From NCBI GenBank assembly GCA_051453625.1, contig JBOZIK010000001.1, forward strand, positions 13,124,682 through 13,157,727: a stretch of DNA of 33,046 nucleotides, in the 5' to 3' direction. Each line of letters begins with the position of its first letter. Position 1 is the stretch's first letter. The DNA comes from Welwitschia mirabilis (lineage: Eukaryota). Below the pieces are notes generated by a model. The model did no database searches, was not told the DNA's origin, and worked only from the letters and a program-made list of their open reading frames with translations. Positions 10,096 to 33,046 of the stretch are shown here, piece after piece. The position numbers and the translations under genes are program-made.

Positions 10096-13007
10096 TAAAA
10101 GGAGAACATCTAGATTAAAATGCATAACTGTGTGAACATAGACTTATTAAGAAATCTTAGAACTCCATCTTATAATTTCATCTCAAAATAATGTAATGTA
10201 AGTTACTCTAAATCAGATATTTTATAAAGTGAAATTATGATTAAAGAGATATTACATTTATACTAAGATTTTGAAAATTTAGTTGAGTCTTATAAAATTA
10301 TTTCTTTTTTGGTAATAAAATGAGAGCCCAATCATGTTACAGATGAGCCATAAAATGATTAATTGAAAACTATTTCTTATTTATTGCATTGTAAGGTATA
10401 AGTTTTTCATTGTCGATTGACATAGTACTTTTCATAGTTTACATTCTTAATCTTATTATAAATACAACTTGAAATCAAAAGAAATGTACTATGGAATTTT
10501 AATATAAACTTAATTAAAACTAAATGTAATAAATTTAAAATGCTTAATTCTTACTTTTTTCCAAGTAATTAATATCTTTATTAATCCTCTCGACTATATG
10601 TATTCCATTCTCTTTTGTTTTAGTATTTTTGTCTTCATGTGATAGACTTTTATAAATTTTTGTTGTGCTATAAACTATTATCATTATGATAAGGATTCCA
10701 TTATTATAGATTTATTAATAATATGAGTAGTTTATTAGTGTAAGTTATTTAATACAAAAACCTTAGTCTTAATGTCTAGTACTCTTAAGAATGTGAAATA
10801 AATTAAAGGTTATTATATCTATCTATAAACCTTTTTTAAGGAAGCATTCTTCAATCACTTAGAAATGGTAGTGCTTACTAATGAATTACACTTTCATCTT
10901 TACCATCTTTAATGAAACATATGGCTAACCAAACTCATCAAAATATTACTCATAGACCTATTATGTTAAACAAATTTACAAAGATTACCTCTCGTATAAT
11001 AAGCAATATACATAGGTATTCTTAGCTAAACATTATATATATATGAATTATATGTTTATTCTAGTATAAATATGATTTGACTAAGAAGTTCTTAATATGA
11101 TAATTTAAAGTACATAATCTATATGAAAATTTTAAATAGCTTACTCAAATATACTAGATTATTTATCTGTAATAGAAATATAACATGTCTGAGAGAGTAT
11201 TAAAGTTGTAGGCTTTAAGCCTAATAACAAGACAACTTAAAGTATTACACATAACTATTATCTTTTCCAAAATTTTTGTAAATGGTAAGTCATGTTAAGA
11301 TAATAAATTTTGGTGGAGAAATTTCTTATGTGTAATATTTTATTTGATCTTGTTATCTAACCTATAGCCTAAATATTTGATACTCTCTAGACAATGTTAT
11401 ATCTATGCTACATATAAATAAGCTAGTAGTATGGAGCTACAAACATATATGTTATGATTCTATGATTATATTAATGTAAAATTTTAACATAACGAGATAT
11501 ATTAATAATAATTTACTCTGTTAGGAATTAAAATCATATAGAATATATCATAAGAATGAATGCTGTAAAATTTTATGTTAAAAATATATTAAAATGTTTT
11601 CAAATTTTATGTAAAATATATTAATTTTTTGGGCTATATATGCACATGGTTTCATGAATGAAATATTTTAAAATAATTATATCCATGTGATAAAAATCAT
11701 TCAAAATGTAAGAACATATTTATTGCATAGAAAATTTACAATATTGAAAATAAGAAATATAAAATAAAATTTACTACATAAATGGCTTAACTAAATTTTA
11801 AATATATATTTGGAAATGACATCAATATTTTAATTTCATATTATAAATCTAACAAATAAATAAGAGTGTATCCTCATTATTTGTAAAATTTAATAACAAA
11901 GGTATTAGGAAATATAGAAAGGCTTTAATGAATGAAAAGTAGATAGCTCAATACAGTTATGATAATTTCAAATTATATTATGTCATACATGGCCCTCCTC
12001 TTTAGGAAATAAAAAAATACTTTAAGGAATAGGGAAAAATCCAATTTAGTAGGGACAATTTATAACATTATGCATATGATCATCTTCTATAGTGCTTAAT
12101 ATTTCATCTATCTTTTTGTCATATTCTTCTTTATTAAATTGTTTTTTTTTTTTTTATATAAGTTTTCTCATTTCTTGAGATAGAAAGTACTCCATATAGA
12201 TGTGAACTATCATTGCAATAATGGTAAGAGAATATTACTAACATAAACTATAATTTTTTCCAATGTAAATATTAAATTTATCCATTAAGTAATGAATGTC
12301 TACTTTGGCATTTTAAATGCATGTATTTAGTCTAATTAAGATATCATGAAGGAAATTTCCAAATTAGGATTTAAAGAAATCACTTACAAAAAAAAATTTC
12401 TTTAATGGTTTAGGAATATGATTGGACCTTTCTGAAAAATGTTTGCTTTGCTTTCTCTATTACTTTAGGGCCATTGTAATTTACAACCAGTAATGTTTAA
12501 GATGGATAATGGTTGATCTTTTTTCCCTCGATCTTTACCTTTTTCTTTTTTCCATTAGTATTATAGCTTCTATATGATAGGATAATAGGAACAAGGTAAT
12601 ATTCCATCTTTAATCCTAAGGACTTTCTTTGTGACATACTATTGTTTGAATTTAATTTATCATATAATCCAATGAATGTCTTTGAAAAGTAAATAGTTAT
12701 TTTTATTAATAGATAATAATTTAACATTTTGAAATAAATTTAAAAGAAGTAGTGTTTTCTTCTAAGTAATAAGAGTACATTAAAATATGTTTAACGAAGA
12801 ACAAAATTAGAAATAAAGACTAACTATAATTTTGAATTAAAAACTCTAATAATGTTACCCTTGAATTTTTACATTGAAAATGAAAGTTTTAAGAATTTGG
12901 TTAGAATATATATGTCAAATAGTAAAACACTACATTATACTCTTTAAGTAGTGATAATATTAATACTTTTACAAATGAAAATTACAAAGAGCTATCACAT
13001 GTAAGAA

Positions 13008-13016
13008 ATGATGCAT
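13008..13016 (+). repeat. Candidate left target-site duplication of LINE-B (ATGATGCAT)
   Basis: An identical 9-mer lies at 19409-19417; this copy sits at the compositional change from AT-rich flank to the LINE 5' UTR. Confidence 0.6.
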
Positions 13017-13232
13017 TTCGGAGATAGAAGGCTAGTTCACAGGTGGAGATATAGGAGCTAGAATTTTGGATGTTTCATGATTAGGAAGAATAGTTTCAGT
13101 CTAGGGGAGCTATGGCATGTAGAGGGGCGATTTCGGCTAGGTTTCAGGTGCTCAGGAAGGTTATTTATAGTTTTTCTCTTATTTTAAAATTGCTTTAAAG
13201 TAGCTTTTTAAGGTAGTCATCTAGCCCTTGAA

Positions 13233-14320
13233 ATGGAGAAGATTCAATTCTCTAAGTAAGAGAAAACCCTTATTTTGAATAGATGAAAATGCATGTTCAC
13301 AAATAGAGAAGAAACTTCAATATAGCTTGATAGGTAAGTCCATTTTGTCAAGCCCCAGGCCTAGACTAGACCTCATCAGGGAATGTGTGGCCACCAAGTG
13401 AATAAGAGTCGGTAGAGTATAGGTTATCATCATGTTAGAAACCTTGGTCCTTGTTTAGCTTAGTAATGAATAGAATAGAGATGAAGTTATTACTAGAGAT
13501 CCATGGTTCTGTGGAACAAGAGGACTAGCACTAGCTAATTAGACTCCAAAGACATAAGTAGACTTGCATCTGTTTAAGAAGTTACCTATCTAGATTTGAA
13601 TAATAGATTTCCTCTCGAGCTCTGGGATGAGAATCTTTTAAAAAGAATTGCCTCTCAATTCAAAGAACTGATTAAACTAGATAGAATCACCATTAAACAA
13701 ACCAAACTAGTCTTAGTAAGATTTTGTCTTTAAATAAGCCTTGAAGAGATAAAAAAGATCTAATCTATTAAGTTTAGATCCAAATAGAAAATGTACAATC
13801 TAGACATCACTTATGAGAACCTCCTAATAACATGTGAGACATGTGAAAACATTAGAGATACCCTAGAAAAATGTGTTACAATAGGGAAAAATGCACACAC
13901 TGCGGGAAAAAGGCCATGAAAGAGATGAGTATGGGAAGAGATAAATAGAGATTGAGAATAAGTAGAAAGAAGCTTGCTTTTTCTATGGAAAATTAGGGCA
14001 CATCCAAAGTGATTACTAGCATGAATAGAAAAAAGAAAAAATGATTAAGAATATAATGGTATATCCTAAGGAAAAGAAAGATATAAAAAAATTATGAGCA
14101 TAATCCATTCCAGCACCTATCGAAAGATGAGGGAGACATGCTCCAATTTGAGAAATACATAAAAAAAGATGAGCTAAATGATGTTGAAATACACATGAAA
14201 TGTAGGCCCAACAAGATAGTGTTAAAATATAGGAAAGGAAAAAGAACATGGCAAATACTTCCCAGGTAACAATCAAAATACTTTAAAAAAAAGTTAAGGT
14301 GCACCCAAAAAGAGGTAAAA
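13233..14320 (+). pseudogene. LINE-B ORF1 (DUF4283-like domain plus zinc knuckle)
   Basis: SLIGK ~13324; RDPWFCGTRGLALAN*TP ~13495-13548; FPLELWDENLLKRIASQFKELIKLDRIT...LVRFC ~13610-13728; YENLLITCETCENIRDTLEKC at 13812-13874 (decayed CX2CX4HX4C). Confidence 0.85.
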
Positions 14321-14326
14321 GTAGAC

Positions 14327-17300
14327 ATGATGGAGTGCCTCTCTTGGAACTGTAGGGGTTTAAGATCCCCCTCTAAAAAGAACACTCAAAGAAATTTAAT
14401 TAGTACGTACAACATAAATTTAGTTTATTTATAGGAGATGAAGATGCATGACAACTTGATATTAGGTAATTTTTGGTAGCAACGGAACATATTTATTTTA
14501 GTAATGCAAGAAAACTTAGGTAGAATCATGACCCTCATAAAAAAGGAGGTAGAATTAATTCACAGTAGTGAGCACCATATAACTATCTACCTCAAGGAGT
14601 AAGAAACTACATAAACAAAGCCTATATGCTAAAGAAACTACATAACTTAGTTATGAATAAAGATAAATGGATAATTATTAGGAATTTTAATCAATGCCTC
14701 CATGGATGCGGAAAAAATAAGGGGAAAAAACTAGAATAGTAAGGGAGCTAAGATCCTTAGAGACTTCATGGAATAAAGAAAACTTTCAGATATTCCCATC
14801 TTAGGATGCAAATTTACATGATCTAATAGAAGAAGTAGAGGTAACCAAATTATGTCCAAAATCGATAATATCTTTACAGAAAAAGAAATAACTAAGATGA
14901 TTATTAATGCATGGGGTAAATAGAATAGCTTCGAATCACATGCCAATCAAATTTAGAATTAGTACAATAATGCCCCTTAGATATCCCTTCAGAATATAAA
15001 GATATTGACTTATAAGAGAAGAAATCAAAAGGATAGTTAAAAAGATTTAGGATCAATATGATGGTATCCAACCAATTACCTTTCTATATAAAGGCTTGAA
15101 AACTCTCAAAACTCATCTTAAGGGATGAAGACAGAAGGATAGAGAAAGATTTAAATCTAAGAAGAAATTAGAGCAAGAGTTATAAGAGATCCAAATAGAG
15201 CAANNNNNNNNNNNNNNNNNNNNNNNNNNNNNNNNNNNNNNNNNNNNNNNNNNNNNNNNNNNNNNNNNNNNNNNNNNNNNNNNNNNNNNNNNNNNNNNNN
15301 NNNNNNNNNNNNNNNNNNNNNNNNNNNNNNNNNNNNNNNNNNNNNNNNNNNNNNNNNNNNNNNNNNNNNNNNNNNNNNNNNNNNNNNNNNNNNNNNNNNN
15401 NNNNNNNNNNNNNNNNNNNNNNNNNNNNNNNNNNNNNNNNNNNNNNNNNNNNNNNNNNNNNNNNNNNNNNNNNNNNNNNNNNNNNNNNNNNNNNNNNNNN
15501 NNNNNNNNNNNNNNNNNNNNNNNNNNNNNNNNNNNNNNNNNNNNNNNNNNNNNNNNNNNNNNNNNNNNNNNNNNNNNNNNNNNNNNNNNNNNNNNNNNNN
15601 NNNNNNNNNNNNNNNNNNNNNNNNNNNNNNNNNNNNNNNNNNNNNNNNNNNNNNNNNNNNNNNNNNNNNNNNNNNNNNNNNNNNNNNNNNNNNNNNNNNN
15701 NNNNNNNNNNNNNNNNNNNNNNNNNNNNNNNNNNNNNNNNNNNNNNNNNNNNNNNNNNNNNNNNNNNNNNNNNNNNNNNNNNNNNNNNNNNNNNNNNNNN
15801 NNNNNNNNNNNNNNNNNNNNNNNNNNNNNNNNNNNNNNNNNNNNNNNNNNNNNCTAAAAGAGGGAAACAAGCATACTAAATTCTTCTTCCAATAGGCTAA
15901 TCAATACAAAATAGATAACAAAATCAGAAAGCTTACAATCAAAGAATAAGTTATTGAAGATGAAGAGGTTGTAACTTCAGAAATGCAAATCCATCTTAAG
16001 AATACATGAGAATGGAAGGATATCACCTCCAATCCCATTCAGATAGATAAGAAATTTTCTCACGAGAGCAATGGAAACCTAAAAATAATCCTATATACAA
16101 GGAATAAGTGCAGGTAGCAATTCAATCAATAAAGAATAACAGAGCCCTAAGACCACATAGGTGGTTAATATAATTATTCAAGGATTATTTCTCTTTCATC
16201 GAGGATAACCTTAATGATGTTATGCAAGACATCTTCACCAATAAGTGCATTCCAGTAAAGATGAATAGGACCCAGGTAGTTCTCATCCTAAATAAATGAG
16301 ATGATAACAAATCAGAGGATTATATACCTGCAATATTCTTTATAGAATCTTTATAGAAATAATGGTGGACCATATTGCCTCCCTGCTTATCAAGGTAATC
16401 TTCAAGAACTAACTATCTTTATCTGATTCAGGTACATTCAGGAAAAAACCATTTTAACTCACGAAATCATTCATTCTATCAAGAAAAGTAAATTTCCTTT
16501 AATTCTTGCTAAACTAAACATAGTAAGCCTATTATTTTGTGAGCTAGAAAGTCTTAAGTACTATCCTAAAAAACCAGATTTAACTCTAACATCACTAACC
16601 TTTGGCTAAACATGCAAGGTTCAGATGAATTCATTGAAGAGATTAATAGCAATAGATCAAAATTATTTTCACTAGGATGCAGATCAAGGTAGGGAAACCT
16701 TTTATTCACTCACCTCTTTCTATTTGTCATGAATGTTTTACAAGGAATGCTCAAAAGGAATGGAGTCTTAGGGATAAAAATAGAAAGCTAAGTGTTCATC
16801 AATAATCACTATGAAAATGATACCATTATCATGACTCAAGCCTCTTGTAAATAATTAAGAGCCATGAAAAACATCATGAACCTTTGTGCTAAGGCCATGG
16901 GGCTCAACACCAACTAGAACAAGTATGGCATTCACATCATCAACAAATGCATGAGGAGAAGGGTGGATATTTCTAGAACCTTAAAAGCCAAATTAGGAGA
17001 TCTATAAGATATTTACTTAGGAATTTCCCTCAAAAACTGGCATAAGTACCTAACTTGAAACTTTATCTTAGAGGAAAATTCATAAGAAATGTAATACTTA
17101 GTTAAACAAATTTCTCTCTTTAAACACCAAGATCATCTTATCAAATACCTGTCTAATTGCTTTTTTTAGATATATAGCTTTTGTTATCACCCACCTAAGT
17201 TCATAATTACAAAAATCAACAAAATGTTGAAGGAGTTCCTCTAGTGTGGAGGTAGTGATAGAAGTTGCATTTATCTCTACAAATGAGACCTCACTACTCG

Positions 17301-17914
17301 TCCTAGGGTTGTAGAAGGCTAAGGAATTCATAAACTAGAAGACTACCTATTCACAAGATCTCACAAAATTATTAAAAGATTACTTATGAGAGGATAGCCT
17401 TGGAGTGAACTAATTAATTATAAATACCCATCTTGAACTACAAATAGAGGAATTTCTTAATTTTGGAAGCATTTATCAAAAGGCAAAAGAGATTTGATTG
17501 AACTAGGTATAACCAATGAAGACACATCAAAATCTATCTTAATCAAGAACTATGATAAGGATGAAGTTAAGAAAAGATTCTAGCAGGGATGGATTCCTAA
17601 CAAAATTAAGATCTTCTATTGGCTTAGAGACCATAATAGCCTATTAACTAGAGACTAGATTATCAAATGTGACATGCAAATTTTTTCTACATGCCCAATA
17701 TTCCAATCAAATAAGGAAGATATTCACCATGTTGTTCATCAGTGTAAGTGGAGTACAAACTTAATAGAATTAATGACAATTTATTACATGAATAGACAAG
17801 AGACTATGAGATAGATGCTAGATGGGATTCACTTGACATTTTGGTAGATTTGGTGTACTTGCAATGACTTAATTTTCAATAACATATCCCCCCTCCCTCC
17901 ACTTCTTTCCTATT
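14327..17914 (+). pseudogene. LINE-B ORF2 (APE endonuclease, RT, zinc finger); contains N gap 15203-15853
   Basis: MMECLSWNCRGL at 14327; YL*EMK ~14426; WIIIRNFN ~14668; FT*SNRR ~14813; ASNHMP ~14928; EGNKHTKFFF ~15860; RSR*GNLL ~16681; HYENDT ~16807 (YADDT); YLGI ~17014; CPIFQSNKEDIHHVVHQC ~17692-17745; FW*IWCTCNDLIF 17839-17877. Confidence 0.9.
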
Positions 17915-17934
17915 AATACAGCTAGAAGGATTTG

Positions 17935-19076
17935 ATGTTATCACTTGCAAATTCAGGTGGTAATGGAGTTACTCTGACATTTAATCCAGAAAATCTAAGC
18001 CTTTATGAGAGCTTCTAGATCTATGAAATAAGGTGCAAGCCTTGGGATGGAAAAACCTACTACACAATCTTAAGGGAGAGCTAGATTTTGATATTGCCTC
18101 ATTTTACAGATTCTAAAGAGGATACAAAACTACATTTAGAAGAATTTCAATTGAAGTCACTAAGTAATCATTGTCTTAGCTTCAAAAAATTTTTATGGAA
18201 GAGGAGAGGGTTCTCCTTAATTATAGAGGGCAAAGGGAGGCTTTCCATTTCTTCTCTAATGGCAACCCTAAACTTTTTAATGGTCACATTAGTAGGAAAG
18301 TGCTTTTACCCTCCTAGGGTTTGGGGCCTACATTAGTTGATAGATACTTTATTCAATCAAGCTATTACTTAAAGCTCTTTAACTTATATTTCATTTTTCT
18401 TAAGGCCCTAGATCATGGGCACTGCATGAAATTACTTTACATTTTCATTTAAACTTTAAGAAGAAAACATGTAGTTAGGAATTATGGACTTATAATGACC
18501 CTTTTAAGAGCTGTAAGGGACTCTAAGATGATTACAGAGGCCTCCTTCTCTCTTCCACATTATAGGGCAATAGTAGAGGTCCAGTAGTCAAGTCAGTTGG
18601 AGAATGAGCCGAGTGCTTCATAATTTCACGGGGAGGAATCTCTACCCTCACCTCAAGAAAATCATGAATTGGTAGAACTGATTCCACCCCTCAAAGAATA
18701 TCATACTATAGAGTAGCAGGAGGAGCACATCCAGCCTAAGAAGGACTAGCAGAAAACTCCTCCTGAGAAGCTAAAAAGCTCTAAGTATAGTGAGGAAATA
18801 GAGTATTAAAGCCAGATGGATTCAAATCCAGGTATAGAACATTAGACCATACAAGAAGACATTGACCCAGAGTAAGCAGGGAGGGAGGTATTATATGCCA
18901 CAATTCAAGGGATTAAAAGATGTTCCTTTCTAATTCTTAGCATTACACACAAAGCTTCCCTAGGTACCATCAAATCGATATTTCAAAAGAAGGCCTCAAG
19001 ACTTTATCTTGACAAGAATAATAGGAGTGAAGGAGTTTAAAGAAGTGAACTAGGCCTTCAAGCTCTTGAGGGATGA
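17935..19076 (+). pseudogene. LINE-B extra ORF3 or C-terminal extension resembling LTR-retrotransposon accessory (Transposase_32/Athila env-like-type) proteins, with an acidic Q/E/P-rich tail
   Basis: ATG at 17935 is in the ORF2 frame. After one frameshift near 18027, a single frame runs to about 19076 whose internal stops are all TAA/TAG. It reads VQALGWKNLLHNLKGELDFDIASFYRF*RGYKTTFRRISIEVTK*SLS...DRYFIQSSYYLKLFNLYFIFLKALDHGHCMKLLYIFI*TL...NYGLIMTLL. Confidence 0.65.
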
Positions 19077-19408
19077 AAAGGGCAGGCTCGTGATCTAGCA
19101 CCATCACAGTCACTTATTTCCAAGTTGCTAGGGATATTGATCAACCATTTTCTTCTAATTTTATCTTAGTTTTTCATAATTCTATTGTTAATCACATTAG
19201 TCTTAGGGTTGATATTTTCTTACTCCATTTTTGCAGTTAATTACTTTCGTCCTGATTCTAGCATTGCTCATGAGTTTACTTTAAGATCTGATTATGTCAC
19301 AAACTCATTTTCTTATATTTCCCTGCTGGAGGGTGCTTTTATCCCCTTATTTCTAATTACTCCTTTCTAATATAAATTTTAGTTCTTACTATTTCAAAGA
19401 ATATATAT

Positions 19409-19417
19409 ATGATGCAT
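19409..19417 (+). repeat. Candidate right target-site duplication of LINE-B (ATGATGCAT)
   Basis: Immediately follows the decayed A-rich tail and matches 13008-13016. Confidence 0.6.
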
Positions 19418-20384
19418 CTTGTACTAAATCCTATTGTAAGCAATATTTTGAATGAATAAACTCCTAACATGTACTACTTAAAGAGCATTAGTTGTAACTA
19501 GTATGGAATATTTAGCAAATGTTTAAAAGAGAGATTGATAATGAATGCCTTCATGTACTGTGGAAATATTGACTAGCATTGTTTCATGGAAATGGAGAGA
19601 TAAAAATATTTGATAAGAACATAAGCACTAATGAAATTATTATTAACATAATATTAATGATAATATAAATCTTCATTCATAACAACATCAGCCTTGAAAT
19701 GTTCTCATCACTTAAATAGTCAAACATTATTTACAATCTTAGAAATTAGGTAAGTCCTCAAAAACACATTTAGGAAAAATATCATGTTTGAAAATCTTTA
19801 TCAATTTAGAAAATTTTAGATCTTAAAATATAAAAATATATAAGAATTTAAAGATTAAAAAAATGCAATGTTATGTTATGACCATATTATCTTATTTCAT
19901 CTAACATGTATTGGGTAAAATAGAATATTACTGCAAGGAACTTCAAAAGTACATATTTTTTGTTTTATTTAGATGTGCATTCTCATTGAATTTCTAACAC
20001 ATTCTTCAAAAAACCCCCTAATGTTATAAAAATTAATTATAACTAGCTCCTTCATTTCCAAGATTTGTGATACATAGAGAAATTTAAAATAAAAAGGAAA
20101 AGCATTTTAAAAATTTTCAACTAATAGAATACACAAAGAGCTATGAAATTAAATGAGTATATAGACATCCCATTCCAATTTGAAGAAATACCATGATGTT
20201 GTAATTGGTTAAATTTTCATATCAGTCGAACATGAAAGAAAGGAAAAAGAAGCTTGTATTTGAGATACTTTTGTATTTATTACATTCTTCCTTTTACACT
20301 GCCTAATATTCATCAGTTTTTCTTCTTAATTAAGATAGAAATAAGATTATCTAGTTATAAAGAGTCTTTCTTGTAATTTTGTAG

Positions 20385-20850
20385 AGATCTTCTCTTCTCT
20401 TGAAAACTTTCAATTCCACAAAAGAAGAGCAAAGAAGACTCATCCATGTGATTTCAAGGATTATGAAGGAAGTAAAGGTGAAAAAAGAATGGATAAATCT
20501 TAAATTATTTTCTTTATTATTTTCACACTATTTAGAAAGGAATTCTAATCTTTAATGTGTGTTTTTTAATATACATAACATTTTAAGTTATCACTCTTTC
20601 CCTTTTTTTTGATGGTTTAACTCCATAATATGTTTTTTTTTTTAACTCAAGGAAGATTTTTGAATAATAAATTATGAATGAAGAAGAGTAAAGAAAAGAT
20701 CTAAGAATGATAAGTATTGCCTATATGAGTCTCTTAGATTTTCTTTTTAATAATAAGAAGAATATGAATGATTTTTAGCTTTGGAGATGCTTAGATATCC
20801 AAATAGCAGTGGTAGCTATGAACAGAGATCATTCAAACAACTCACTCGGG
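20385..20850 (+). pseudogene. Possible decayed three-exon fragment, weakly CACTA Ptta/En/Spm (TnpA-like)
   Basis: Polypyrimidine-AG acceptors precede 20385, 20652 and 20779, with donor-like ATAAAT/ATAAGT (GT>AT) at 20493 and 20710. The spliced frame stays in phase: ...VKKEW|EDF*IINYE*RRVKKRSKN|ALEMLRYPNSSGSYEQRSF. Confidence 0.25.
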
Positions 20851-20861
20851 CATATGTTATG

Positions 20862-21818
20862 TGATAAGGATGAATTTTAGATAAATCTTGCTTATTAATG
20901 AATTGTTCTCCCTTATTTTAATTATATATTTCATCAACAAATAAATATTTTTATTTATTTTTATGCATACTAATAAATAGGTTAGTTAGTTAGTATGTTA
21001 ATAAGTTAGTATGCATATATTTCATTATTATGTTTTTGGTATGAGATGCCAAGTGGTATGAAGATGAGAGAGAAGGTTGAGGTAGCGAATCAGCATAACA
21101 ACCCAAACCATGTACCTATTTCTCAGGAGCAAAGAATGAAAATAGAAAAACTAACAAGGGTATAAGAATGTGATCACCACCAAAGATGAGAATCTTTTTG
21201 GCAAAAAGGTACTAAGAATAGACAAGGCAAAAAGGTAAAGCTAGGAAATTCCAGCTAGATTGCAAAAGTGTTAGCAGCAATTTCCTAAATTCCATAGTAT
21301 TACTTGCAAAGGAGGCTATCATTTGTTAACTCATCTTTATGTAATAATTAGTATGTTAATATAAAGCTAAAAATAATTTAAGTATCATTGTATGCATACT
21401 TTGTTACTTGAAAAAAGTAATATTACTTTAATTTGCTCCTATTTGTGGAGTTGAACATAAACTAGGATGATTTTAGTACATAGAAATAAGTATTACTCAT
21501 CAATTCATTTAACTGTTATTCTATTTTATTTCTTTTAGTATTCCCCCTTGGTTTAATATATGTACATAGTAATTAATATTAAATAAATAACTTAACTAGT
21601 TTAAGTAACTTCATCGCAAGACTATTGTGATTATGAATTAAATGGTTAAGTCTGAGCTAGTTCTTTAGTAATCCTTTAATGTATTTTTGTTTAATGATGT
21701 GTGCTTATTTTGAGTTAGCAGTAGCATAGTTTCTACATTTTTCCAGCATTATTTTATAGTTTTTGATATTGTTTTGTGATATTTTATACACTTATTTTAT
21801 CACATAATCCCCTCATCA
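20862..21818 (+). repeat. Candidate 5' LTR (~957 bp)
   Basis: Ends ...CCCCTCATCA at 21818, 3 nt before the PBS. The start is placed at TGATAAGG (20862), a one-mismatch inverted match to the end CCTCATCA. The 3' end is well supported; the start is tentative because there is no second LTR to compare. Confidence 0.55.
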
Positions 21819-21821
21819 TTT

Positions 21822-21838
21822 TGGCACTAGAAGGAGGG
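21822..21838 (+). promoter_or_regulatory. Primer-binding site complementary to the 3' end of plant tRNA-Asn
   Basis: TGGCACTAGAAGGAGGG versus TGGCGCTAGAAGGAGGG, the complement of the plant tRNA-Asn(GTT) 3' end as I recall it. The single G>A difference is at a CpG. Confidence 0.85.
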
Positions 21839-21862
21839 TCGCCCTAAAGTAAATTAGTGGAG

Positions 21863-24420
21863 ATGACGAAAAGTGCCATGCAATAGGATAGTCAAGGAAA
21901 ATGGTGAGATGAAAGAGATAGGTACATTAAAGATTCACATAAATATGGTCTAGAAAAGTGGGCTAAAAACACTATTAAGTTAGAAGTAGAAAAGGACAAT
22001 TTTACAAAGGATGAAGTAACTTTAAAAAAGATGGTAAAAAACCAAATCTTTCTTGAATTAATGACCAAATTTGAGTAATGATTTGAATCTTTCTTACATC
22101 ACCTCACTCACTAGGAGAATCTTCTCAAATAGTTTAGGTCAGAAAACCTGAAAAAAAAGTTGTAACAGGATGTTACTAGAAAGGTGATGGAGATTCAAGA
22201 CCTTGGAACCATGATACCCACTAGTTAGATGATATAAGTCCTATCAATTATATATCCCTACAACAACTAGATAAAGTAAAAAACATAAATACTATTAATA
22301 TTCACTTTTGAAGGTAAAAAGTTAGATGAACCCCTAATACACCTAAGTTTATTTGATGCCTTTTGTAAGGCTAATTATGTTAACTTAGAATCTGACTTTT
22401 TAGATATTTTCTTTTTCCTTAAAAGGATATGCTCAATTATGGTATCATAATGGGAAACCCTTAATAATACTCTCCTAGCTATATTTCAATCCATGAAAAT
22501 GGTGGAAAATTTAAGAGAACAAATCCTAAACATTAAACCAAGAGAGAATGAAAGATTTGATGAATTTATGTATAAGTATAATATATTGTTAGCCAAATGT
22601 TCTAATCATGGAATCATATCTAGTGAGAGCCTTACTTAGAAAACTACAGAATCAGACATTGAAGGAATTAAACTTATTATATAGAGGAAGCATCAAAACC
22701 AAGAATGTCTAAGAAGTGAAAGAAGCCATTACTCAGTTTGATAATATGACTCAAGGATGGGGTCAAGAAATTGAAAAAAGAAAAAAGTAAATGAAGTGTG
22801 TGCTCCAAAACCATATGATAGTTTACATAGCTTAAAATATATTAGTCTTATGAAAGAAGTAGCTAAAAAATGATTGATGGCATGGTAGAAAAATTTGATC
22901 GATTAGCTATGCAACACCTCAAGGTAGAAGAAGGACCTACCTGTAAAAACTATGGAGAAGATAATCATGATGAAATAAAATACCTTTGGATGCAATAATT
23001 TGTTTAGTGGTTAGATATAAATAGATTGAATTTAAACTTTAGCAACCAACCTCAAACTAGAAAGCAACCATATCACTACCAAAGTAGAAAATGGGAAGGA
23101 AAAATGAAGAGACCNNNNNNNNNNNNNNNNNNNNNNNNNNNNNNNNNNNNNNNNNNNNNNNNNNNNNNNNNNNNNNNNNNNNNNNNNNNNNNNNNNNNNN
23201 NNNNNNNNNNNNNNACTTTAGCAACTAACCTCAAACTAGAAAGCAACCATATCACTACCGAAGTAGAAAATGGAAAGGAAAAATGAAGAGACCTTTACAA
23301 AGGTATGTAAACTCAAAGAGGTAAGAGCAATATGATTACTATAGAAATTGGAAAAATAAAGATCTATAAAACTAAAAATAAAATATAAAAATAAAAAGAA
23401 AATAAGGAAAAATCCCTGCTCAACCTCAACCAACTCCTAAAGAAGCAATAAGNNNNNNNNNNNNNNNNNNNNNNNNNNNNNNNNNNNNNNNNNNNNNNNN
23501 NNNNNNNNNNNNNNNNNNNNNNNNNNNNNNNNNNNNNNNNNNNNNNNNNNNNAAATAAAAAGAAAAGAAGGAAAAATCCCTGCTCAACCTCAACCAACTC
23601 CTAAAGAAGCAATAAGTAAAGCAGTAAATACTAGACCTAGAAAACAAAAAGTGACAAATGAATCATAGAAAAAGAATGTAAATCCAAGGAACTCCCTAGA
23701 AAAAGAAGAGGAAAAAGTTAAAATAAAAATAGTGGATAACACCTTAGCAGATTCTTTATCTTTTCTAATGAGAAGTAAAAAAAAAGAACATTTAAAAGTT
23801 AAAAAGGATATAGAATATTTAACAAGGACATTAGAAAACACAAAATATCAATACCTCTTTTAAAATTATTAAAGGATGTACCTATGTATTGAAAACAAAT
23901 AAAGAACATGTGCTCAAAACAAAAAGATAAAAAAGAACATAAGAAAAAAACAAATTAAGATGGTAAGAAAGGATCAAGTTTCTTAGGATTCCACACAAGT
24001 TCTTCAAAATAGATAATATGAAAAGTACAGTGATCCCGGAACACCTATGACAGATGTGAAAATAGATGGAAAACTTAAAGTAGTAGTACTTATAGATCTT
24101 GGAGTAATTATTAATGTTATAACCTATGAAACTTATGAAGAATTAAGAAAACCAAAATTAATACCTTACTAAGGAAAAGTTTACTTAATAGATGGCTCAG
24201 TAGCTATGCCAGTTCTAAAGTATATACCCATAGAACTCTAAGGTTTTATCTATTTGATAGATTCACTAGTAATGAAAACTTAAGAAGATACTCATGCAGT
24301 GATTCTTGGAAGACCATGAATGGATACTATAGATGCTACTATTTATTTTAGAAGAGGGACAATGGAAATTAATCTTAGTGATCTTAAAAAAGATATCAAA
24401 TTTTCTGATGTGTCAGTTGT
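21863..24420 (+). pseudogene. Gypsy gag and aspartic protease (decayed)
   Basis: FEGKKLDEPLIHLSLFDAFC ~22307; FSLKGYAQLWY ~22413; KYSDPG ~24022; VLIDLGVIINV with DLG at 24095-24103; VILGRP ~24299. Confidence 0.85.
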
Positions 24421-24639
24421 TAAATAAATTATGCAAAACACAGAAGCAAAAACTAATATAATCCTAACACAAGAAGTTAATCTAATGTTAAATAAACAAA
24501 ATAAGGATAAATACAAGAAATAAGATTTATCAACTAAAGAAATAGAAAAGCCTTCTCTTAAGGAAGGGCTAGAGTATATTAAGGTAGCTGCTAATAGATA
24601 TTTGATTATAAACAGTTATTTAACTCCTTCTCAAAAGAG

Positions 24640-26200
24640 AAGACTTAAAAGAATGTTAATTAAAAAAAAAAGGAGCCTTCGCTTGGGATCATACAAATAT
24701 TAAATGAATAGATCCAAAAATCTGCCAACATAGAATCTACTTAGGCACTTCCATTAAACCACGTCAGCAACCAAAGTGAAGGTGTAACCCACATATGCAA
24801 GAGCTAATTGAATAAGAAGTTTCCAAACTCTTAAAAGTAGGATTCATTTACCCAATATCTGACTCAGAATGGATGAATCTTGTAATAGTTGTATCAAAGA
24901 AAAGAAATAAATGGAGAGTGTGTATAGACTTTATAATGTTAAATACAGTAACTTATAAAGATCATTTTTCTGTTCCATTTGATGATCAAGTTTTAGAAAA
25001 ATTGTCTAGATATCAATACTATAGCTTTCTAGATGGATACAGCAGCTACAATAAGGGTCTTATAGCTTTGGAAGACCAAGAAAAAATAGCTTTCACTTAT
25101 CATTGAAATACTTATGCCTATAAAGTACTACTTTGAACTATGTAATGCTCCCACTACTCAAAGGTCAGTAAATAGCATTTTTCATGATATAATGGGAAGA
25201 TCAATTGAAGTATTTATGATCTACTTCTTAAAATTTGAAAAGGACTTTGAAGAACCACTTGAAAGATTGAGAAAAGTTTTACAAAGGTGTCAGGAAAAAT
25301 GCCTTAAACTTAGCTAGGTAAAAAGTCATATTATGGTAACAAAAGTCATAGTATTAGAACACAAAATATCTATAAAAAGGGTTTATATTGATAAACAAAA
25401 AATCAAAGCTATAAAAGATAGTCCATTCCTAACTAAACTTAAAGAGTTAAGATCTTTCCTAGGACATGTTGGATATTATAGAAGATTGATATCCAATTTC
25501 AGCAAAATCGCTAAATGTTTTAGTAATCTTCTACAAAAGGATGTGGAATATGACTAGACTGAGAAATGTCAAGATGCTTACCAAACATTAAAAGATAAAT
25601 TTTTATTAGCACCTATTCTATAAGGGCCAAATTAGACAAGACTATTCCACATTATGACAGATGCATCTAAACATGCTATGGGAGCAATTTTAGGATAGAA
25701 AGATGAAGACAATAAATCTTATGCCATTGCCTACATCAGTAAAAAAATTCAAACTAGCTTAACAAAATTATACACTAATAGAGAAAGGCTTTCTAGTAGT
25801 GATAATGGCATTGNNNNNNNNNNNNNNNNNNNNNNNNNNNNNNNNNNNNNNNNNNNNNNNNNNNNNNNNNNNNNNNNNNNNNNNNNNNNNNNNNNNNNNN
25901 NNNNNNNNNNNNNGCCTACATTAGTAAAAAAATTCAAACTAGCTGAACAAAATTATACACTAATAGAGAAAGGCTTTCTAGTAGTGATAATGGCATTGGA
26001 AAAATTTAGACATTGTATTTTAGGTTACAAAGTAAAAGTTCATACTGACCATAGTGCCATTAGATTTTCAATGAATAAGAAAGAAGTGAACTTGAGAATT
26101 ATGAGATGACTATTATTAATGTAGAAGTTTAATTTAGAAACCATTGATAAGAAAGGAAGAGAAAATTTGGTAGTAAATCACTTATTAAGGCTAGAGTTTT
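24640..26200 (+). pseudogene. Gypsy reverse transcriptase and RNase H (decayed)
   Basis: ORF-track fragments WRVCIDF..LN..T.KDHF, FLDGYSSYN, LCNAPTT, EVFMIYF (decayed MDD box) and ELRSFLGHVGYYRR; also MTDASKHAMGAILG ~25655 and VHTDHSA ~26038. Confidence 0.93.
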
Positions 26201-26269
26201 CAGATGAAGAACAGATCAACATTGAGATGAGTTTTTCATTGGATACCTTTTTCAAATAATCACAAACCT

Positions 26270-27500
26270 GTGGTATGCTAACATTGTTAACTTTCTTATA
26301 AGTAAAAGATTACCCTCTTTTATGACTTATTATGAAAGAAAAAAATTATTAAGGAAGTCTAGAGATTAGATTTGGCATGATAAGATGTTATTTAGAGAAT
26401 GCAAGGACCATGTCATTGGAAGATGCATAGAGGAAAACTTACAAAAAGAAATTTTAAATAAAGTTCATGAGAGAGAAGGAGGAGAACGTTATGGTGCAAA
26501 GAGAATAAGAATAAAAATTCTCCATATGGAATATTATTGACTCATCATATTCAAGGATATAAATACTTATGTCTAAGGTTGTGATAAATATCAGAGAGAA
26601 GGCATAGTTAGAAAAAAGTTAGAAAGGCCACAACAATGGATTCAAGTGATTAAAACTTTTAACATTTGGAGAATAGATTTTATTGGACCTATTAATACTT
26701 CATCTTTTAGAAAGAAATACATCTTGGTCTATGTTGATTACTTCACTAAATGAACTGAGGTTGCATCTGTAACAAATTGTTCTTTCCAAACTATAGTTAA
26801 CTTTTTCCTTATGAATATCATCTACAGATTTGGAGCCCTCCAAATTCTTATATCTAATAGGGGAACTCATTTTATTAGTAAAGTCTTTGAGAAACTTTTA
26901 TCTAAGTTTGAAATCCATCATAAAATCCCTACTACCTATTACCCCCAATCCAATGGCGAAGTTGAAGTNNNNNATAAAAAGCTCAATAGAATATTAATAA
27001 AGGTTATAAACAATAGGAAAACTAATTGGGCTAATAAGTTATATGAAGCTCTATGGGCTTATAGAATAACTTGGAAACATACTACAAGATTTATTCTATA
27101 TAAATTAGTCTATGGGAAAGAGCTATTTTACTAATTAAATTTAGAATAAAAAATTTAAATTAGCTAAAAAATTAAAATGTAATTTAGACATAAAAAAGAA
27201 TGAATAGAAAACATGAATATTGTAGATGAAAATAGATAAGAAACTGTTCAACATAAAAAACTCATATAACAAAAAACTAAAATATATCATGATAACAAAA
27301 TTAGAAAAATAAATTTTAATGTATGAGATTCTGTATTAATTGATGATCCTAAGAAAATCCATTCAAAACAAAAATATGAACAAAATTGGCTAGGACCTTA
27401 TACTATAACAAAAATTATAGGAAATAGAACCATAAAAATCTATAATCCTGATGAAAACATAACCTACCAAGTTAATGGGTAAAGAGTAAGTTGTATTACA
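26270..27500 (+). pseudogene. Gypsy integrase with GPY/F motif (decayed)
   Basis: WYANIVNFL ~26271; DFIGP ~26677; VDYFTK ~26733; SNRGTHF; YPQSNGEVE; ALWAYR; WLGPY ~27387; VNG*RV ~27471. Confidence 0.93.
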
Positions 27501-27893
27501 ATCATAAATCCATACTTAATTATTTAGGAAACCCTAACAAAATGGAAAAAATACTTCNNNNNNNNNNNNNNNNNNNNNNNNNNNNNNNNNNNNNNNNNNN
27601 NNNNNNNNNNNNNNNNNNNNNNNNNNNNNNNNNNNNNNNNNNNNNNNNNNNNNNNNNACTTCTACTCTACATATGAAATAAAGCTTCAAAATTAGATAAT
27701 AAAAAGGACATGTCATTTCTTTAAAGTTTATTCATTCTATTAATTTATCAAGTTGTTTAACATGAATGAAATAATTATAAACTAAGAAGTAGATACGATA
27801 AGTCTTCAACAAAAAATTGTGAATTATCTTTATTAAGAAGATTAGGAATACACATTTCACCACATAAAAAAAAACCTTCTGAGTATTATTATT

Positions 27894-27909
27894 GAGAGAG
27901 AGAGAGAGA
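27894..27909 (+). repeat. (GA)8 microsatellite
   Basis: Direct reading of the sequence. Confidence 0.9.
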
Positions 27910-28473
27910 ACCACAATGTTTTACTACAAGTGTAGCAGGGAAAATATTCCTGAAAGGGGCCTTTGGAAGTATATCTTGGGGCTCTTTCTCCTCTAACAAC
28001 GGTTGCATGCTCCTCATTATGGCCAATCTAAGTTGTAAAATATGAAAAGTGGAAGAATAGTTATTCCCAAGAGTCATCTGAGACACAGCTAGTTATCAAA
28101 ACTAGAACCTTATCACAACTAGAGATTAGGAAAAAAAAAACTAGAAGGGAATATTCTGGTCTATGATGGAATGTGTATCAGAATATTTTCAATTCAATAG
28201 CATGCACAACTATTAAATTTTGTTTAAGTTGAGAGAAGACTTGAATTTTTAAATCAATTTACATGATCATAACGATTTAATGAATTATTTAGTTTGAATT
28301 TCCTTTAATAGAATAGATGTGTCCATAATAAAGTAAAAACAATAAAAGATAATTTATTTGAAATAAAACTCAAAAACTTTATTAAGCAAAGTAATTATTT
28401 CAACTAATTATAGAAATAAAAAGTGAAAACACTTCTCAAATCCCTAAATAAACTACTTCTCAACTTAAGCAAC

Positions 28474-29367
28474 TTAATTCTTAAAGTAATCACAAAACTT
28501 ATTTCTATTTTGAGAATGCCTAGTCTTTGATTTTGACCTTGCAAAATTCTCACATGAGGGTAAGAGATGCATCTCACTTAGATATTTAGTTAGCATACCA
28601 ATCTCCTCTATATGGGCTAGTCAAAAGTTTTGATAAGTTTTAGCATTCCATATTATCCTCTCTATATTTTCCTTTTCAAAACTTAATGTAACCAAGCTCA
28701 AGATAAAATTGGTGCCCTAAAGCTAATCAACTTTCTTATTTAGCACCTACATCTGTCTAGCTAGCTAACCCAAAGAAACGTCGTGATTCAATTTTTCATA
28801 ATNNNNNNNNNNNNNNNNNNNNNNNNNNNNNNNNNNNNNNNNNNNNNNNNNNNNNNNNNNNNNNNNNNNNNNNNNNNNNNNNNNNNNNNNNNNNNNNNNN
28901 NNACTTAATGTAATCAAGCTCAAGATAAAATTGGTGCCCTAAAGATAATCAACTTTCTTCTTTAGCACCTACATCTATCTAGCTAGCTAACCCAAAGAAA
29001 CGTCGTGATTCAATTTTTCATAATTGAGCTACTAACATAATTCTTCACTTCTTAACCGTAGATACTTACTAACTAAGTGATGAATCAAAACACAAAATCT
29101 TAGAGGAATGAAACCACTTCCAAAGTGATCCTTACTAACCTTAGTGATGAAGGAATCTAAAGAATATACAACCTCAGCTATCGATTTGTAATCATAGTAT
29201 GGAAACTGTTGAACTACATTTTCAAACCTGATAGAGACTTGAGATGATTGAGGATCTACAATGCTAATGTACATATCTATTTGTGTAGAACTTAAGCTGA
29301 ATAAATAATGCTTCACTTTCTTGATTCCAGAGGTAGCACTAAGACAAGAAGAAGGAGTGTAAGCCAT
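28474..29367 (-). pseudogene. Antisense accessory ORF remnant in the Gypsy 3' region, unknown function
   Basis: The 111-aa ORF 29032-29367 continues in frame through TAG stops (LNYEKLNHDVSLG*LAR*M*VLKKKVDYL*GTNF...ENIERIIWNAK...) to TAA at 28474. The duplicate copy across the gap has CAG where the other has TAG. Confidence 0.55.
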
Positions 29368-31869: not shown

Positions 31870-33046
31870 GATCCCTACTTAACAGAATTTAAATAAAAAC
31901 TTGTTGAGTTGGGATGGTACGAGTGGCTTACCCTCAATAATAGATTCTCTTTGGAATCTATATAAAAATTTAAGAATCAACGATGACAAAACTGTACTAG
32001 AAACTACTATAGGGAACTAGAAGATAATAATTACCTAAGAAGACATAAGAGAAATTTTGCACCTTCCACCCAATGGAAAGTCCATAGATAATACCAATAA
32101 AAAGGAAGATATAAATCTAAGTGTGAGTCTGCTAGAACAGGTGGTATTCCAAGCAATTATATTCGTTAAGAATGACATAGATCCAAAACTCTTTATTATT
32201 TCTAAAATTGTAGCCAGAAATGTAATATCCATTCTTCACAAACAAAAGGATATCATATTACTTTGTCTATATATAATAGTAGCAGTGAAGGATAAGACAA
32301 ACCACACCAATGTGAATATTACAGAAGGGATCTTTTTAGGGTTGGTAAGGCATATTACCAAATTAAATAAAGTTGAAATTGGATCTTTGGGAGTAGAAGG
32401 ACTTGGATTTCCTTCTTTAATCACCTAAATTTTGAGTAAAAATAAAGTTCCATTTCAACCGACCAAGTCTTGTATTGAGGTTTCTATTTAAACTTTGTTT
32501 GGGGTTAAGGAGTTAAGTCTTGTGAAAACTCCAAGACTCAAGGGAATCTTCTTCTACTCTTCAAAGTTTACCTTCATTAATACCCTCCTCAAGTTTGTCA
32601 GAAGACCTAATCTAGTTCACATTTGAAGAACTTTTGCTATTCCAGTCATTTCAGTCTAGTCAATTCTTCAAAGTACTATAGGAAGACACATTGGATAGCT
32701 TTTATAATGCTCTGAATTCAGTTAAAGATGAAATTCAAATTTGTCTAAGCAGGAAAGAAAAAGTTTTAAAATTACAAGATTAGGTTAGTAATCTAAAAGC
32801 TATAAATGAATTCTTAAAACAGAAATTAGATCAAGCAAAAGAGAATAATAAATAGCTATGTGAAGAGATCACTAGCCTAGAAGAAGATATTCATCTCTCT
32901 AAATCTTTCAAATAAGTAAGCAGGAAATTACAAAGGGTTTATTAATGCATTGCTGAACTAGAATCAGCTGTCGAAGACAAAGGAAATATAAAATTTTTGA
33001 GAGAAAGGGTAAAGATGTTAGCATTCTTATTATAGAATTTGGATTC
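31870..33046 (+). pseudogene. Sense accessory ORF of the Gypsy element (Transposase_32/Athila env-like-type) with a coiled-coil-like C-terminus; truncated by the window end
   Basis: KLVELGWYEWL ~31897; after a frameshift, WNLYKNLRINDDKTVLETTIGN*KIIIT*EDIREILHLPPNG (from 31952) runs in frame into the 123-aa ORF ending GLGFPSLIT*IL. Heptad-like KLQD*VSNLKAINEFLKQKLDQAKENNK*LCEEITSLEED from ~32769. Confidence 0.7.

Follow-up and report, generated by a model that had tools for sequence, protein, structure and literature searches.

The 3' tail of LINE-B, a decayed L1-type retrotransposon of Welwitschia mirabilis without long terminal repeats (a long interspersed nuclear element, LINE), contains the remains of a gene. 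The element lies on the forward strand of a 33,046-nucleotide stretch of contig JBOZIK010000001.1 (assembly GCA_051453625.1), hereafter the window, whose first letter is position 1 of all coordinates given below. The region 18030-19040 once coded for protein and is now dead, the decayed remnant of a genuine open reading frame (ORF), and the tail that holds it is part of a LINE family rather than a one-off. We consider it rather probable that positions 17935-19076 as a whole represent what decay has left of a third ORF (ORF3) of ~380 codons that belongs to an L1-type LINE family, whose normal 3' module would consist of ORF3 and a terminal sequence of ~325 bp. A plant L1 variant carrying such an ORF3 is probably new. 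A preliminary description, made from the letters of this DNA, had proposed a LINE family with a third ORF captured from a long terminal repeat (LTR) element. The third ORF stands, as a multi-copy and collinear coding remnant, and its capture from an LTR element is without alignment support.

A dead coding region downstream of ORF2

The frame 18030-19040 contains 13 stops in 337 codons (7 TAA, 6 TAG and no TGA), just as had been counted before. Each of the other five frames of the same span has 22-33 stops, 4-11 of them TGA. Among 5000 Markov-1 shuffles, 13 or fewer stops in some one of the six frames occurred in 4.2% of cases, and 13 or fewer stops together with zero TGA in one frame in 0.32%. 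A chance origin of this low-stop frame is unlikely. Per 100 codons, ORF3 carries 3.9 stops (13/337), the 3' part of ORF2 4.2 (10/237) and the off-frames 6.3-10.4. Since the load of ORF3 equals that of ORF2, the former was about as intact as the latter when the LINE-B copy was inserted. The motifs listed in the preliminary description are all present, from FW*IWCTCNDLIF at the end of ORF2 (17839-17877) through LGW (18042), ISIEVT (18144), RYF (18342), LLYIFI (18432) and GLIMTLL (18486); an E/P/Q-rich stretch follows.

With stops written as X, the read-through translation was compared by phmmer with 1.84 billion representative proteins, and a sole match emerged at E<=0.001. This protein, P0001 (E 1.2e-9), is a 91-residue ORF of a W. 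mirabilis Trinity transcript, labeled complete in its source, so that a relative of ORF3 is transcribed in Welwitschia. Residues 24-91 of P0001 correspond to 18030-18233 (32 of 68 identical; tblastn E 1.1e-17 against the window) and residues 2-16 to 17965-18009 in frame 1 (8 of 15 identical). The homology thus spans a frameshift, as expected of a decayed coding sequence. For the same reason we moved the start of ORF3 to the ATG at 17935, upstream of 18030 and in a different frame from that proposed earlier. This ATG shares the frame of ORF2 and lies 19 bases past the ORF2 TAA; a single frameshift near 18010 (18010-18029) joins frame 1 to the frame 18030-19040. The parts of the tail, with read depths from runs X13 and X14 described in the next section, are as follows.

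17935..18015, + strand: ORF3 start, an ATG and 27 open codons in frame 1 (P0001 alignment)
18030..18596, + strand: ORF3 N-terminal domain, 189 codons with 6 TAA/TAG stops (P0001 alignment; depth 18-40 in X13)
18597..18837, + strand: E/P/Q-rich linker of ORF3, poorly kept among copies (translation; depth 1.3-10.3 in X13)
18838..19076, + strand: second conserved block, either the C-terminal part of ORF3 or an element of the 3' untranslated region (UTR) (depth 26-33 in X13 and X14)
19077..19401, + strand: last section of the repeat unit, with (TA)n at its end (depth 4-9, against ~1 in the flank)

The second conserved block has an in-frame TAA at 19038-19040, and the first in-frame TGA, at 19074-19076, may be the original ORF3 stop; it coincides with the end coordinate given in the preliminary description. 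Beyond it, the frame 19077-19400 has 3 stops in 108 codons, which is not significant. This last part also contains, in the ORF3 frame, a 66-codon ORF (19170-19370, + strand) that is very hydrophobic and transmembrane-like (FFIILLLITLVLGLIFSYSIFAV) and has low read depth (4-9). It could be either a chance ORF in T-rich DNA or the remnant of a membrane anchor.

Compared with P0001, 43 of the 83 aligned codons differ. C>T or G>A changes suffice to derive 18 of them, the reverse changes suffice for 8, and neither class accounts for the other 17. The direction of change fits the deamination-driven decay described in the available part of a report on the Welwitschia genome, where GC content is 29.07% in total and 28.77% in transposable elements (PMC8275611). 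Decay after insertion would accordingly have proceeded mostly through C>T and G>A changes, leaving TAA and TAG stops.

Other searches gave no additional relatives. The six frames of 17935-19078 matched no Pfam family at E<=1, RNase H included, in agreement with the previous failure to see RNase H after ORF2. P0001 matched no Pfam family at E<=10, and a profile search of the PDB gave no match at E<=10. Homologs were found neither among 565 candidate proteins of near length to the tail nor among 77 candidates longer than P0001, and the two-sequence alignment A1, searched at near lengths, recovered P0001 alone among 8 candidates. The region 17700-19600 had no Rfam match at E<=1. A metagenome match (L001, 596-769) was rejected as chance: it has 70% GC and a bacterial-looking ORF of 676 codons, and the EGERIPFE pattern is all that it has in common with the query.

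Copies of the tail in reads and contigs

Part of the stretch occurs in twelve public runs. Two raw-read runs (X13 and X14, ~1.94 billion letters each) and two contig sets were mapped on 16300-20500 at 80% likeness. The mean depths, both orientations summed, are given below for X13 and X14, respectively.

17005-17850, 3' part of ORF2: 65.7 and 65.2
17851-18414: 33.9 and 34.2
18415-18837: 5.8 and 5.6
18838-19119: 29.5 and 27.7
19120-19401: 7.9 and 5.4
19402-20500, flank: 0.96 and 0.77

According to this profile, there are at least tens of copies of the tail, which consists of a conserved block, a variable acidic linker and a second conserved block. Depth drops from 6.5-8.9 in the bin 19261-19401 to 0.3-0.5 in the bin 19402-19542, which places the end of the repeat unit near 19401. 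Most of the mapped X13 reads (2542 of 2972) are less than 90% alike to the window and therefore derive from diverged copies, not from the LINE-B locus. A depth peak of ~316 (X13), five times that of its neighbors, covers the reverse transcriptase (RT) catalytic box in the bin 16723-16863. Reads of many other LINE families probably match here at 80% likeness, and the depth over ORF2 would consequently overstate the copy number of the family.

The contigs connect the end of ORF2 with the tail in copies other than LINE-B. One contig of 1263 nucleotides matches 17551-17968, from which it differs by 68 letters and 12 gaps. Position 17851 is joined to 17939 in three contigs (two in X3, one in X5) and 17880 to 18269 in two (one each in X3 and X5); inside the tail, 17955 or 17964 is joined to 18135 in three contigs of X5. 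These figures come from the best-supported joints and pieces, beyond which there are 500 more joints and 8861 more pieces. Behind 17882, the consensus of the loose ends of 30 contigs (X5) runs through a C-rich tract into TTTCCTATTAATA, as in the window, so the TAA triplet is common to other copies. The preliminary description had regarded a single occurrence of the segment with this LINE as fatal to its proposal; instead, the tail is multi-copy and collinear with the end of ORF2 in diverged copies.

The reads also bear on the coding nature of the tail. The in-frame stop at 18177-18179 is private to the LINE-B copy: at 18179, 23 of 24 raw reads have another letter, which turns the stop into a sense codon. 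Two more positions, 18184 and 18210, agree with P0001 in the residue given by the majority letter (25 of 26 and 65 of 72 reads, respectively).

Suspected kinship and competing explanations

From the order of motifs, the preliminary description had assigned the ORF3 protein to the Transposase_32 (PF20167) and ATHILA ORF-1 (PF03078) type of LTR-element accessory proteins, and had drawn a parallel with a Gypsy ORF in the same window. The alignment methods lend neither claim any support. The hidden Markov models of both families match neither the six frames of the tail (E<=1) nor P0001 (E<=10). The 3' ORF of the in-window Gypsy element (~31952-32452) itself matches Transposase_32 at E 0.0021 with 18.4 bits (cut-off 45), so that, being a weak member of the family, it makes a comparator of little power: BLASTP of the tail against it gave E 7.3, and hhalign with the two-sequence ORF3 alignment a probability of 0.13%. 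The hhalign alignment paired TTFRRISIEVT with TTIGN.KIIIT, the very likeness that had been drawn by eye. As judged from sequence comparison, kinship of ORF3 with Transposase_32 or ATHILA ORF-1 is not demonstrated by any alignment method.

A language-model look-up in the ESM Atlas (P0001 as query, threshold 0.9) points toward the same families. Overall, plant clusters without a name come nearest (0.94). The nearest named clusters with a common Pfam family score below the threshold; two of them represent PF20167 (0.89 and 0.88, with the family on 49% and 16% of their members) and one PF03078 ATHILA (0.88). These clusters have 141-156 features in common with P0001 (141 for the ATHILA cluster), fewer than the 170 usual among true members; of the 10 best family-bearing matches, 7 agree in family or clan. 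The look-up thus favors the families named earlier from motif order, and we take it as a lead, not a test. AlphaFold2 models (pLDDT, the predicted local distance difference test score, 35.5 for A2 and 48.7 for A1) are too poor for a fold comparison. Descent of ORF3 from Transposase_32/ATHILA-ORF1-type proteins, or a common origin with them, is possible but unproven. The more specific scenario, in which a gnetophyte L1 family gained a very distant Transposase_32/ATHILA-ORF1 homolog as a third gene and kept it under selection for a time, is one that we put forward tentatively, as doubtful.

The Gypsy comparator belongs to a separate part of the window. A decayed Ty3/Gypsy element occupies 21000-28800 (+ strand; RT_RNaseH E 1.5e-21, rve E 8.4e-10), and the ORF 31952-32452 (+ strand) with the weak Transposase_32 match lies ~3 kb downstream of it. 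Together they resemble an Athila/Tat-type element with a 3' extra ORF. A match of P0001 to 25396-25548 (E 1.3) falls inside the RT/RNase H region of the Gypsy element and was taken as chance.

Several observations weigh against reading the tail as the ORF3 module of a LINE family. No intact copy of ORF3 was seen. Joints of low likeness (<95) or with short sides (<30 letters) are often repeat artefacts, and the sides here measure 27-40 letters. The 3' end of a true LINE is expected to be at least as deep in reads as its ORF2, and the tail has about half the depth of the ORF2 3' part. This may reflect either a tail limited to a subfamily, or faster divergence of the tail, or an ORF2 depth inflated by other LINE families. 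P0001, although labeled complete, has only 91 residues, so the transcribed copy may itself be truncated, and transcription of a dead copy proves no function. Besides P0001, ORF3 has no Pfam, PDB or further protein homolog in the searches above, and the description of its N-terminal domain as helical derives from the unreliable AlphaFold models. The outer limits of the element are unsettled as well. The 3' limit is set by read depth and the 5' limit is either 12915 or 13018. Two candidate target-site duplications (TSDs), together covering 19398..19418 (no strand), compete, and neither is secured: the 11-mer AGAATATATAT at 19398 with its partner at 12903, which was equalled or bettered in 12 of 300 shuffles, and the 9-mer ATGATGCAT at 19410 with its partner at 13008, which was spotted by eye.

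Among the alternatives to a family-wide ORF3, the one that survives best, although we judge it unlikely, is that an early master copy transduced a 3' flank holding an LTR accessory or host gene fragment, which then spread as dead 3' UTR cargo. L1 elements are known to transduce 3' flanks, the half depth of the tail is what a subfamily-only tail would give, and the Atlas look-up hints at LTR-element families. Dead cargo is harder to reconcile with a stop load that matches ORF2 and differs from the off-frames, which indicates a frame open at insertion. It also sits poorly with the orderly position of the ORF (an ATG 19 bases past the ORF2 stop, ~380 codons and the first in-frame TGA at the end) and with the protein-like order of conservation, block, linker and block.

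A slightly less probable possibility, which is a sub-question of the ORF3 reading rather than its opposite, is that ORF3 was fused to ORF2 as its C-terminal extension and that the stops between them are products of decay. After the C-terminal motif and the C-rich tract, ORF2 likely ends at the in-frame TAA 17913-17915, ~52 codons past the zf-RVT domain, and TAG at 17922 is a second in-frame stop before the ATG 17935. Both are of the decay type, and the ATG is in the ORF2 frame, as a fusion would have it. A separate ORF3 is favored by the presence of the TAA triplet in the 30-contig consensus from other copies and by the Met with which P0001 begins near the corresponding position. The C-rich tract (17883-17912) differs in length among copies, with deletions of 1-3 bases at 17887-17903 in several contigs and reads. 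Because of these indels, the frame relation of ORF2 and ORF3 in other copies is not traceable from short reads, which likewise tells against a fusion.

We find it improbable that two unrelated repeats merely adjoin, the tail being a fragment of another transposon and the bridging contigs duplicates of the LINE-B locus. The window is admittedly a transposon mosaic, in which the Ty3/Gypsy element begins ~1.6 kb downstream, and depth steps down across 17850-18130. Yet the bridging contigs are ~16-19% off the window, not a few letters as in recent duplicates, and near-identical contigs of the LINE-B locus appear separately. The loose-end consensus at 17882 runs on like the window instead of into foreign sequence; depth reaches flank level only at ~19401, beside both candidate TSD copies; and the tail has no other DNA match in the window. 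Finally, a non-coding 3' UTR with a chance low-stop frame, for which the 4.2% of shuffles and the lack of a known domain match might be invoked, is close to refuted by the P0001 homology, which crosses the frameshift and reaches E 1.2e-9 in a library of 1.84 billion, as well as by the zero in-frame TGA and a stop load equal to that of ORF2.

The LINE-B backbone and its relation to known elements

The window is a gap-rich and AT-rich piece of draft scaffold, with GC mostly 0.2-0.3 and 13 runs of N. Six of the 13 runs are exactly 100 N long (scaffolding gaps) and the others measure 368-811 N. GC rises from 0.23 to 0.31-0.38 across 13001-19000, the region occupied by LINE-B, whose features are listed below.

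13018..19401, + strand: LINE-B, decayed L1-type non-LTR retrotransposon including the 3' tail (GC, read depth)
13363..13602, + strand: ORF1 region with a weak DUF4283 match (PF14111, E 0.0002, 21.5 bits, below the cut-off of 27.2)
13975-14001, + strand: CCHC-like knuckle remnant CFFYGKLGH, 3' of the DUF4283 match (motif position)
14330..15203, + strand: endonuclease part of ORF2, opening with MECLSWNCRGL (frame-2 translation; without a Pfam match)
16141..16830, + strand: remnants of the RT core (motifs)
16810-16830, + strand: decayed RT catalytic box YENDTII (motif position)
17545..17757, + strand: zf-RVT domain of ORF2 (PF13966, E 2.7e-9, 38 bits, cut-off 27.5)
17839-17877, + strand: ORF2 C-terminal motif FW*IWCTCNDLIF (motif position)
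17839..17915, + strand: end of ORF2, including this motif, the C-rich tract and the in-frame TAA 17913-17915 (sequence)

Only zf-RVT, the zinc-binding region of ORF2 that follows the RT, clears its Pfam cut-off in LINE-B. We take MECLSWNCRGL (14330) to be the start of the endonuclease and YENDTII (16810) to mark the RT domain, both by motif likeness. A 650-N assembly gap (15204-15853) cuts ORF2, so that the last part of the endonuclease and the first part of the RT are missing. RVT_1 and the endonuclease had no Pfam match in the three read-through frames, where frameshifts and the gap break the frame; for RVT_1, frameshifts are probably the cause. At its 3' end the element has (TA)n rather than poly(A). 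Self-comparison of the window found neither a second copy of 17700-19500 at the DNA level nor a second LINE of this family at the protein level, and a repeat search of 12800-19600 gave nothing notable.

If the tail is the 3' module of the family, one tricistronic RNA would carry ORF1, ORF2 and ORF3. Translation of ORF3 would start at its own ATG after the ORF2 stop, reached by termination-reinitiation or by occasional read-through. For the protein we predict an N-terminal domain (~190-215 residues) that is mainly helical, then an acidic linker that is rich in proline and evolves fast, and lastly a C-terminal block under conservation. Its most likely action would be in cis on the ribonucleoprotein (RNP) of the element, in RNA binding or packaging or in shielding from silencing. 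Roles of this kind, in the RNP or in silencing evasion, are discussed for extra ORFs of plant LTR elements in the accessible text of PMC11728184.

In the composition and order of its backbone, LINE-B resembles plant L1-clade LINEs: the weak DUF4283 match and the CCHC-like remnant come first, then the putative endonuclease start and the RT motif remnants, and last zf-RVT, which is above its cut-off. In the part of PMC5203782 available to us, DUF4283 is said to predominate among the ORF1 domains of plant L1s. Plant L1s are described with two ORFs, whereas LINE-B adds ~1.5 kb past ORF2, including the third ORF of ~380 codons. Additional coding capacity downstream of the RT has a parallel in those plant L1s whose ORF2 gained an RNase H domain (Smyshlyaev et al. 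2013, as cited in PMC5203782). In contrast to them, LINE-B has no RNase H signal, and its addition looks like a separate ORF past the stop rather than a domain of ORF2. Extra ORFs besides ORF1 and ORF2 are also known from ORF0 of primate L1 and from reverse ORFs in L1 elements, both mentioned in the same source; these are short, or antisense, or located in the 5' UTR, unlike the long, sense ORF3 that lies 3' of ORF2.

Other parallels come from outside the LINEs. The 3' additional ORFs of Athila/Tat Ty3/Gypsy elements carry Transposase_32 (PF20167), for which the accessible text of PMC11728184 states a kinship with ATHILA ORF-1 (PF03078). They are accessory ORFs located 3' of the gene for the polymerase, and in them an N-terminal domain (~180 residues) precedes a charged tail. 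ORF3 of LINE-B has the same placement and layout and, by eye, a similar order of motifs. The hosts differ, however, an LTR element in one case and a LINE in the other, and no alignment method links ORF3 to these proteins. In bdelloid rotifers, accessory ORF3 types common to LTR, non-LTR and Penelope-like elements are reported in the available portion of PMC5408684, a precedent for one accessory ORF type across retroelement classes. The rotifer case differs from LINE-B in its animal hosts, in its enzymatic modules (GDSL esterase, DEDDy exonuclease) and in a homology that is demonstrated (PMC5408684).

Our literature search, which covered the text of freely available papers, did not turn up any plant LINE that carries a long sense ORF3, and a family-wide one would, if true, be a new architecture. 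Plant LTR elements commonly carry extra ORFs, whose functions are described as unknown in the text seen of PMC11728184. If ORF3 is unrelated to these ORFs, it is still a lineage-restricted LINE gene with one database homolog. If it is related to the LTR accessory group, one protein type would serve both capsid-based and target-primed reverse transcription, and its role would be narrowed to steps common to both, such as RNA handling, nuclear entry or silencing evasion. As a very distant homolog, ORF3 would mean that an accessory module passed from one of the two major classes of plant retrotransposons to the other, and would point to a function of the protein family that is independent of the LTR life cycle.

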